743 nucleotides of DNA, taken from Escherichia coli (GTDB lineage Bacteria > Pseudomonadota > Gammaproteobacteria > Enterobacterales > Enterobacteriaceae). Under the pieces are notes generated by a model, which worked only from the letters and a program-made list of their open reading frames with translations, was not told the DNA's origin and did not search any database. This document shows, in pieces, positions 1 through 743 of the stretch (its first letter is position 1; each line of letters opens with the position of its first letter). The DNA lies in the NCBI RefSeq assembly GCF_003334335.1, contig NZ_QOWQ01000152.1. One strand, given 5' to 3'. A program made the translations under genes and the position numbers.

Positions 1-464
1 GGTAACGCAACACCTGCTGGCTGAGGAAAGGCTTTACCATCGGTTTCCGCTACGGATGCAGCTTCCGGCTCTGCCGGTAAATCAGCGCCCGGTATGCAGT
101 AACGAAATTTACCACCCTGATTCACGCGAATCAGACGCCCTTTGCTGATTGCCATGGCCAGCGATGAATTCGCCCGGCGGGAGGTAATCCCGAACATCAG
201 TGCCAGCTCATCCGCCGTTTGTGGGCCATGTTGTTCAATCGCCTCAGTCAGCATTTGCGCTGTCACTTTCGGTACCGGTGACACCGGTTCACTTTCACCA
301 GCCTGAATCAGCCACCACATCGAACCCTTGTTATCCGCTTCACCGCGGCGCTTCAGTTTCCACAGTTCGTTGACCGCATCTTCACGGCTGATTCCAAGGC
401 GGGCCGCCACTACCTGTGAAGAGGCTCTTTTCAGTGCTTTCAGTGCGTCAAATACGGTTTCCAT
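1..464 (-). CDS. Partial CDS: start codon in window, 3' end runs off at position 1. Hypothetical protein with two tandem winged-helix-like segments; putative DNA-binding regulator, family not recognised.
   Basis: Hand translation of the reverse complement from ATG at 464..462 gives 154 codons with no stop to the window edge: [160 protein letters not shown] Shine-Dalgarno lies 7 nt upstream of the ATG. Codon usage is rich in CTG, GCG, CCG, GAA and AAA. The product call is inference from sequence pattern only. Confidence 0.8.
263..296. repeat. 15-bp palindrome (ACCGGTG-a-CACCGGT, 274..288) flanked by 8-bp direct repeats (tcactttc at 263..270 and 289..296)
   Basis: Read directly. The palindrome has 7-bp arms around a single central base, with GGTACC overlapping at 271..276. 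The whole structure lies inside the downstream CDS, in the segment encoding [12 protein letters not shown] between the two winged-helix-like segments. Confidence 0.85.
429..446. repeat. Perfect tandem duplication of a 9-bp unit (plus strand tttcagtgc x2)
   Basis: Read directly: 429..437 and 438..446 are both tttcagtgc. On the minus strand this is GCA CTG AAA twice, encoding ALK-ALK at residues 7..12 of the downstream CDS. Confidence 0.9.
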
Positions 465-471
465 TAAAATT

Positions 472-477
472 TCCTCC
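472..477 (-). promoter_or_regulatory. Shine-Dalgarno / ribosome-binding site for the downstream CDS
   Basis: Plus-strand tcctcc at 472..477 reads GGAGGA on the minus strand, with a 7-nt AU-rich spacer (AAUUUUA) before the ATG at 464..462. Confidence 0.75.
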
Positions 478-497
478 GACAAAATCGTTTCTCAGAT

Positions 498-737
498 TCA
501 AATAAAACCAGCTGCCTTCCGGCGTTCGTATTCCTGTTTCAGCCGTTCAATTGGCGTTGGCCCTTGCGGGTGTTTCGCCCCTTCCAGTTGTCGTCGCACT
601 GGCGGAACACTCATCCCGTTACCAACATGCTTTGCCCATTTCGTCAGTTGCCGTTCCGCAAGTCGTTTTAACTCACCCTGCGTCATCTGGCGCTCAATCC
701 CTCTGGTACGCATTTCGAGGCAGATGTGGTACAGCAC
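498..737 (-). CDS. Hypothetical small basic protein (79 aa as given by the ORF track, using GTG at 737..735). Start is uncertain and the frame remains open to the window edge at 743.
   Basis: Supplied ORF track; my re-translation matches it, with TGA stop at 500..498. Net charge is strongly basic (about 16 K/R against 8 D/E). Codon usage is mostly enterobacterial with some rare codons (AGA, GGG, CGA). Alternative in-frame ATG starts are at 713..711 and 686..684; none has a convincing Shine-Dalgarno (AGAGGG sits about 12 nt upstream of the ATG at 686). Codons 740..738 (P) and 743..741 (Q) are in frame with no stop, so the gene may start beyond the window. Confidence 0.55.
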   Translation of the reverse strand: MLYHICLEMRTRGIERQMTQGELKRLAERQLTKWAKHVGNGMSVPPVRRQLEGAKHPQGPTPIERLKQEYERRKAAGFI

Positions 738-743
738 AGGCTG

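Follow-up and report, generated by a model that had tools for sequence, protein, structure and literature searches.

Two closely spaced reading frames on one strand of an Escherichia coli contig (NZ_QOWQ01000152.1) raise the question of what they encode, whether they are transcribed together and to what kind of element they belong. An earlier note, made from the letters alone, had proposed a small basic protein paired with a DNA-binding protein in a regulatory or excision/replication-control module. The whole stretch that was analysed, 743 nucleotides (nt) long and called the window below, is 100% identical to positions 3369283-3370025 of NZ_AP045172.1 from E. coli JNEC-KY176, and this match with 15 kb on either side (about 30 kb in all; locus L001, to which coordinates outside the window refer) was used as its genomic context. 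The window is very probably the junction of two genes in the rightward early (pR-type) operon of a lambdoid prophage, namely the gene of a lambda P-type helicase loader and a gene of the DUF1627 family. RefSeq already has annotations for both genes (WP_000139447.1, ‘replication protein P’, and WP_001529168.1, ‘DUF1627 domain-containing protein’); the layout is that of a standard lambdoid early right operon, and the families are catalogued already.

Both long reading frames lie on the minus strand. The upstream one, open as far as the window edge at 743, closes with a TGA at 500..498; the downstream one begins with an ATG at 464..462 and has not closed by position 1. The spacer between them (497..465, minus strand; ATCTGAGAAACGATTTTGTCGGAGGAAATTTTA) is 33 nt long, a distance read directly from the sequence and the same as in the earlier note, which had also correctly credited the downstream gene with a strong Shine-Dalgarno sequence (GGAGG at 477..473, separated from the ATG by 8 nt). 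In the source genome, the upstream frame forms the last 246 nt of a 462-nt gene (L001 14785-15246), so that codons 73-153 and the TGA fall inside the window (498..743, minus strand). The 81 residues encoded there are indeed basic, with an isoelectric point of 10.4 and a net charge of +8; what had been taken for a small open reading frame (ORF), however, is a part of a 153-residue protein. A 79-residue ORF with a GTG start at 737, reported by the ORF lister, was discarded as a product of the truncation at the window edge. The downstream gene (L001 15280-15996) has 238 codons, of which 1-154 are inside the window, and the 84 further codons, covering a conserved motif and a C-terminal helix, lie beyond it. 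We regard both frames as real genes rather than chance ORFs because both proteins match Pfam families and because the ratio of nonsynonymous to synonymous substitution rates (dN/dS) of the DUF1627 gene was 0.3-0.4 against four homologues, as under purifying selection.

Judged by its sequence relationships, the upstream frame codes for the C-terminal half of a replicative-helicase loader, a short member of the lambda P family. The full 153-residue protein matched the Pfam family PF06992 (Phage_lambda_P) with E = 3.7e-15 (residues 14-120 against model positions 53-161 of 162) and phrog_109, ‘P-like helicase loader’, with E = 4.5e-54, the latter match beginning only at profile position 74 (74-236 of 236). 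A phmmer search against the PDB returned 8v9t (‘Helicase loader’, E = 0.0027), a weak but family-specific match, and 8v9s (‘Replication protein P’, E = 0.0059); residues 20-125 of the loader align with residues 96-202 of lambda P, the protein of these solved structures. NCBIfam has no family for either the loader or the DUF1627 protein, which counts against the proposed identification of the window. The C-terminal part of lambda P is the part that binds DnaB, and its N-terminal third contacts O. A loader that lacks this third fits the different initiator of the present prophage, which has a DnaT-like domain. As with lambda P, the loader would act together with the initiator and bring the host DnaB to the phage origin. 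Since the upstream frame is a helicase loader, the pair does not constitute the cassette of a small basic and a DNA-binding regulatory protein that had been suggested at first; it marks the boundary of the replication module and the first gene after it.

The genes preceding the window are consistent with this placement. The loader gene overlaps the end of the initiator gene by 8 nt (L001 14785-14792). The initiator gene itself (L001 13755-14792) encodes an O-like protein of 345 amino acids with a DnaT-like domain, and it contains five in-register copies of a repeat with a 10-nt period, TGTCACGAC(A/G), arranged in two clusters about 260 nt apart (L001 13882-13927 and 14163-14219). By analogy with lambda, whose origin likewise lies inside gene O, the TGTCACGAC repeats are probably the iterons of the phage replication origin. 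A repeat search that included the DUF1627 gene and its surroundings found clear iterons only in the initiator gene. The initial suggestion of a replication-control module came close to the truth, and its other half, a role in excision, was not supported, int and xis being located elsewhere in the prophage. As a separate observation on the two replication proteins, phrog_15931, a profile of 482 positions, spans the O-like and the P-like protein end to end; as it covers both, some phage records must contain them as one fused ORF.

The downstream frame belongs to the DUF1627/YdaW family. The full protein matched Pfam PF07789 with E = 8.9e-82 (residues 76-230 against model positions 1-155 of 155) and phrog_630 with E = 4e-116 (residues 1-237). 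The family is small, with 155 representatives at 50% identity among 1.84 billion proteins, and a DUF1627 homologue was present in 24 phage records, 23 of them lambdoid phages of Escherichia/Shigella and one a recorded Actinobacillus phage. The last (PP818812.1, recorded as an Actinobacillus pleuropneumoniae phage) carries a homologue that is 56% identical and is the sole match outside Escherichia/Shigella phages, which may mean that the host range truly extends this far or that the host was mis-assigned.

An alignment of 33 full-length DUF1627 members (A1), 32 of which matched PF07789, was used as the input for an AlphaFold2 model. The mean predicted local distance difference test (pLDDT) score of this model was 82, with values above 90 in both winged helices and in the C-terminal helix. 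As modelled, the protein shows two minimal winged helices, an acidic linker, a short motif and a basic C-terminal helix, in keeping with the winged-helix-like character that had been attributed to it. The first winged helix (WH1; codons 1-55, window positions 300..464, minus strand) has pLDDT values of 95-98 and the secondary structure order H-E-H-H-E-E, and residues 1-59 are matched by phrog_16668 and phrog_630. A short variable linker separates it from the second (WH2; codons 68-125, 90..263, minus strand), within which the Pfam model begins at codon 76. The remaining codons inside the window, 126-154 (1..89, minus strand), open the disordered acidic linker, which extends over residues ~126-185, varies in length across the family, has a mean net charge of -4 and scores 49-61 in pLDDT (residues 131-190). 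Beyond the window, the linker is followed by the conserved motif IPSFT..DDLxxPS and by a long basic C-terminal helix (residues 193-237). Leu34, Trp50 and, within this helix, Arg201 are invariant in A1, and R36, P13 and P26 are conserved in a sub-alignment of the C-terminal part. In most comparisons dN/dS was lower in the folded parts, with the linker nearer to neutral.

The architecture is itself variable. Between one and three winged helices occur in the family, P0164 and P0202 having three in tandem, and in phrog_1888 a single winged helix is joined straight to the C-terminal helix. Two further proteins, P0125 and P0149, are chimeras in which a replication-initiator N-terminus is joined to the C-terminal part of DUF1627; they appear to have arisen in decaying prophages by deletions that took out the loader gene and fused what remained.

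Searches for known structures related to DUF1627 gave likeness of fold only. Searching the PDB by sequence with the single DUF1627 protein returned noise only, and a profile of the C-terminal motif and helix retrieved nothing but designed helical repeats from the PDB and DUF1627 itself from Pfam; the disordered linker, the short motif and the C-terminal helix have no PDB counterpart. Foldseek matched the model to the tandem winged-helix proteins ScpB, SelB, ESCRT-II, AlkX/YcaQ and UFL1, and fold matches in the viral library were to uncharacterised phage winged-helix proteins and to tandem-Zalpha proteins. ScpB, SelB, ESCRT-II, AlkX/YcaQ and the Zalpha proteins have no sequence-family relationship to DUF1627. 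Matches to ADAR1, ZBP1 and PKZ led us to consider a Zalpha-type protein, a reading rejected on the grounds that the residues contacting Z-DNA are not conserved: by hidden Markov model alignment and A1, none of Asn173, Tyr177 and Pro192-Pro193, which with Trp195 make up the contact residues (human ADAR1 numbering), is kept. In place of Tyr177, WH2 carries Ala, Met or Ser, and it lacks the Pro-Pro pair; WH1 has Trp35 in this protein, at a position that varies in the family (R, Q, H, S), and a wing that is three residues shorter. The only Zalpha-like feature retained is the wing aromatic residue (W50; Y or W in WH2), and the resemblance to the minimal Zalpha-type winged helices of ADAR1, ZBP1, PKZ and ORF112 is one of fold.

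Whether the two genes share a transcript was examined at their junction. A 101-nt fold across it showed no significant RNA structure (z = -0.53 against shuffled sequences), and a consensus scan found no promoter-like site in or near the 33-nt gap. The same type of scan for terminators flagged a single site, a marginal hairpin of five pairs, three of them G-C (GCCGG-AAGGCAG-CTGGT then TTTTATTT; 507..523, minus strand, L001 15221-15237), which lies inside the last codons of the loader gene. This hairpin with its T-run (523-497), placed at the very 3' end of the loader gene, is the one observation that speaks against a common transcript and in favour of two separate transcription units, in which the loader gene would end in a terminator and DUF1627 would have its own promoter. 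The hairpin is weak, though, and did not form when its own 31-nt stretch (525-495) was folded, the whole of which reached only -5.2 kcal/mol; terminator-like sites were not clearly commoner in the surrounding region than expected (8 against 4.7 +/- 1.9 in shuffles), and early operons of the lambda type read through such sites. A terminator or attenuator at the junction was therefore rejected, the hairpin at 507..523 is probably not a functional terminator, and we consider separate transcription units highly improbable.

Adjacency of the two genes is also conserved. The loader and DUF1627 genes were neighbours with a gap of 33-34 nt in all four of the P-type prophages examined, the other three being those of the PPompW phages, E. 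coli 042 and ETEC4073, in which the DUF1627 alleles have diverged. Lambda transcribes cro-cII-O-P-ren from pR as one message (PMC3640518). Because of the short gap, the want of a convincing terminator or promoter, the kept adjacency and the lambda pR transcript, co-transcription of loader and DUF1627 is the best reading and a plausible one, so that the probable operon of the earlier note is upheld, as is the absence of a convincing terminator between the genes. On prophage induction, one message from a cro-side promoter would carry both genes, and DUF1627 would be translated from its own strong ribosome-binding site.

Comparison with relatives bears on what DUF1627 does. It directly followed the replication module in all relatives examined, and these modules were of different kinds: a P-type loader, a DnaC-type loader (in Rac-type and Shiga toxin (Stx) phages) or a DnaB-type helicase. 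In another context the upstream gene encodes a single 315-residue protein without a Pfam hit, taken from its position to be a replication protein. This constancy of position could be read as the mark of a replication accessory that acts on the complex of origin, initiator, loader and DnaB, by releasing the loader or by binding DNA at the origin or fork, and tandem winged helices do occur in the DNA-handling proteins ScpB and AlkX/YcaQ. Nevertheless, such a protein would have to serve three or four unrelated types of helicase or loader. The Rac-442/2 homologue, which follows a DnaC-type loader, is 72% identical to the DUF1627 protein of the window, and the PPompW homologue, which follows a P-type loader, is 64% identical; DUF1627 divergence thus does not follow loader type, which argues against a loader-specific partner role. 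DUF1627 is, moreover, absent from lambda itself and truncated in the Rac prophage of K-12. A replication accessory therefore appears rather improbable to us, and since DUF1627 follows P-, DnaC- and DnaB-type modules alike, with an identity that does not track the loader, we place it outside the core replication machinery.

The literature on DUF1627 consists of passing mentions and contains nothing on function. The K-12 gene ydaW has been predicted to encode a MarR-type transcription factor (PMC4797297; PMC9308461), a listing in line with DUF1627 being a sequence-specific, MarR/ArsR-like transcription factor that tunes early or late phage genes or host genes. That listing is a prediction only. 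The modelled winged helices are minimal and lack the N- and C-terminal dimerisation helices that flank the core in MarR proteins; the range of one to three winged helices within the family would be unusual for an operator-specific repressor, and a search of the DUF1627 gene and its surroundings gave no repeated candidate operator sites. We accordingly think a role as such a regulator unlikely.

A further possibility is that DUF1627 is an anti-defence or anti-exclusion factor, a functional counterpart of lambda Ren, which protects from Rex exclusion, and that it neutralises abortive-infection systems of the host or of a resident prophage, such as retron toxins. Like ren, the gene comes directly after the loader gene; it would be expressed early, and it is accessory and mosaic, with several copies per genome. 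Weak matches to Ren-like PHROGs point the same way: the whole protein matched phrog_142 with E = 6.4e-5 (WH2 alone, 0.015), and phrog_16568 was matched with E = 0.011. In addition, ydaW was among the prophage genes that blocked RcaT, the toxin of retron-Sen2, when overexpressed in a screen (bioRxiv 10.1101/2020.06.22.160242; PMC11951105). The K-12 ydaW is a fragment, so the RcaT-blocking activity belongs to a piece of the protein without the conserved C-terminal module. Observed in its own right, this gene (L010 3242-3694) comprises the N-terminal 151 codons, with the two winged helices only, and has been joined by a deletion to a lysis gene.

Orthology with Ren found no clear support. The N-terminal part of Ren is itself a MarR-like winged helix by profile (phrog_1687, E = 1.5e-10), and Ren and DUF1627 both match phrog_142, phrog_1687 and phrog_633; Ren, however, has 96 residues and one domain, unlike the 238-residue DUF1627 protein. 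Direct comparisons by BLASTP and hhalign were all non-significant, and any relationship would go no further than a generic winged helix. A gene annotated as ‘Ren-like exclusion protein’ comes right behind DUF1627 in the Shigella phage 75/02 Stx, and lygF has the same place in Rac 442/2. With the screen result also lacking a mechanism, we hold it doubtful that DUF1627 is an anti-defence counterpart of Ren.

The reading that we put forward for DUF1627, tentatively and with low confidence, is that of an accessory nucleic-acid-binding protein, a dimer through its C-terminal helix, which acts in phage-host conflict or in early regulation. Such a protein would most likely modulate phage-host conflict (exclusion or escape from defence) or early gene expression. 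Several results weigh against this proposal. The direct comparisons of Ren with DUF1627 gave E = 1.7 in BLASTP and a probability of 19-22% in hhalign, with a single sequence as well as with a 14-sequence Ren alignment; a separate gene annotated as Ren-like, or lygF, directly follows DUF1627 in 75/02 and Rac 442/2, as described; and the defence-system models of PADLOC returned nothing meaningful (best E = 0.008). The RcaT-blocking effect comes from an overexpression screen with a truncated protein and could be indirect. As for the binding of nucleic acids, the tandem winged helices of ScpB, ESCRT-II and UFL1 mediate protein contacts, those of SelB binding RNA. A coiled coil in the C-terminal helix was considered and rejected, the best heptad register having only 57% hydrophobic residues at a/d positions, and dimerisation of DUF1627 hence stays an assumption.

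In a bolder form, DUF1627/YdaW would be a widespread class of early lambdoid-phage proteins that neutralise abortive infection by the host or by resident prophages, by means of one to three minimal winged helices, a disordered linker with a short linear motif, and a basic helix. We regard this as quite unlikely; if true, it would parallel Ren against Rex, and the block of the retron-Sen2 toxin by the ydaW fragment would be accounted for. DUF1627 genes are carried in prophages of about a third of sequenced E. coli. What retains its value is the kept slot after the replication genes together with the anti-retron hint, which make DUF1627 a reasonable and cheap target for phage genetics, and the domain map shows which pieces to test, i.e. 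the winged helices, the acidic linker, the motif and the basic helix.

The wider locus is that of a mobile element, as had been surmised. The JNEC-KY176 prophage is lambdoid and inserted beside potC/potD, with integrase and excisionase genes in the flanking sequence, 8-9 kb upstream of the window locus. Its order begins with integrase, excisionase, exonuclease, dicB and DicF, followed by a relBE toxin-antitoxin pair. A cI-like repressor gene on one strand and a cro-like gene on the other come next, and after the cro-like gene lie YdaT (in the cII position), the O-like initiator (345 residues), replication protein P (153 residues) and the DUF1627 protein (238 residues). Nin-like small genes, hokD/sok, DUF968, RusA and a Q-like DUF1133 gene then lead to a DNA methylase, three transfer RNAs (tRNAs), an esterase and the lysis genes.

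Several details of this prophage were recorded alongside. The DicF small RNA (sRNA) lies beside dicB at L001 10407-10458 on the minus strand. The relBE-type pair directly adjoins the cI-like repressor gene in the immunity region (L001 11894-12375), and the type I toxin-antitoxin pair sok/hokD is located in the nin-like region (L001 19142-19466, plus strand). The late region (L001 22470-26772) has a layout typical of Stx phages without stx genes, in the order DNA methylase, tRNA-Ile, tRNA-Arg, tRNA-Arg, two copies of the STnc100 sRNA (L001 23952-24160 and 24356-24568) and a SASA-family esterase. All Rfam matches in the 30-kb locus (DicF, sok, STnc100 and the tRNAs) are outside the window, an Rfam scan of which gave no match at E <= 1. 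The slot after DUF1627 is filled in this prophage by a 105-residue protein matching phrog_323, ‘transcriptional regulator, D5-like’; in many relatives a LygF/DUF977 gene, the one annotated as Ren-like in 75/02 Stx, comes right after DUF1627, as in the comparison loci L011 (3534-3965), L012 (4786-5217), L013 (3782-4174) and L014 (3739-4161).

The locus is accessory and prophage-borne. A comparison of presence and absence, as proposed in the earlier note, showed that 1950 of 5426 complete E. coli genomes match the window, at up to six copies per genome, and that 691 match at least 80% of its length. DNA matches to DUF1627 occurred in 1912 of these genomes, again with up to six copies each (in O157-type strains), and the P allele group of the window had matches in 1234. 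With the locus found in 1950 of the 5426 genomes, it does not represent a core-genome family shared by all related strains.

Among known systems, lambda is the closest point of reference for the loader. The lambda P protein is of the same family, and its gene likewise overlaps the end of the initiator gene and has the same operon position. The two loaders differ in length, lambda P having 233 residues against 153 here, where the N-terminal ~70-95 residues are absent, and the initiator partner in this prophage carries a DnaT-like domain, unlike lambda O. On the other side of the junction, lambda has ren as the first gene after the loader in the pR operon, a slot held here by DUF1627. For the DUF1627 protein the nearest counterpart is YdaW of the Rac prophage of K-12, a member of the same family in the same slot after the loader gene, and the intact YdaW of Rac-442/2 is 72-74% identical to the DUF1627 protein of the window. 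The two settings differ in the loader that comes before: in Rac, ydaW follows the DnaC-type loader gene ydaV, whereas the DUF1627 gene of the window follows a loader of the P type.

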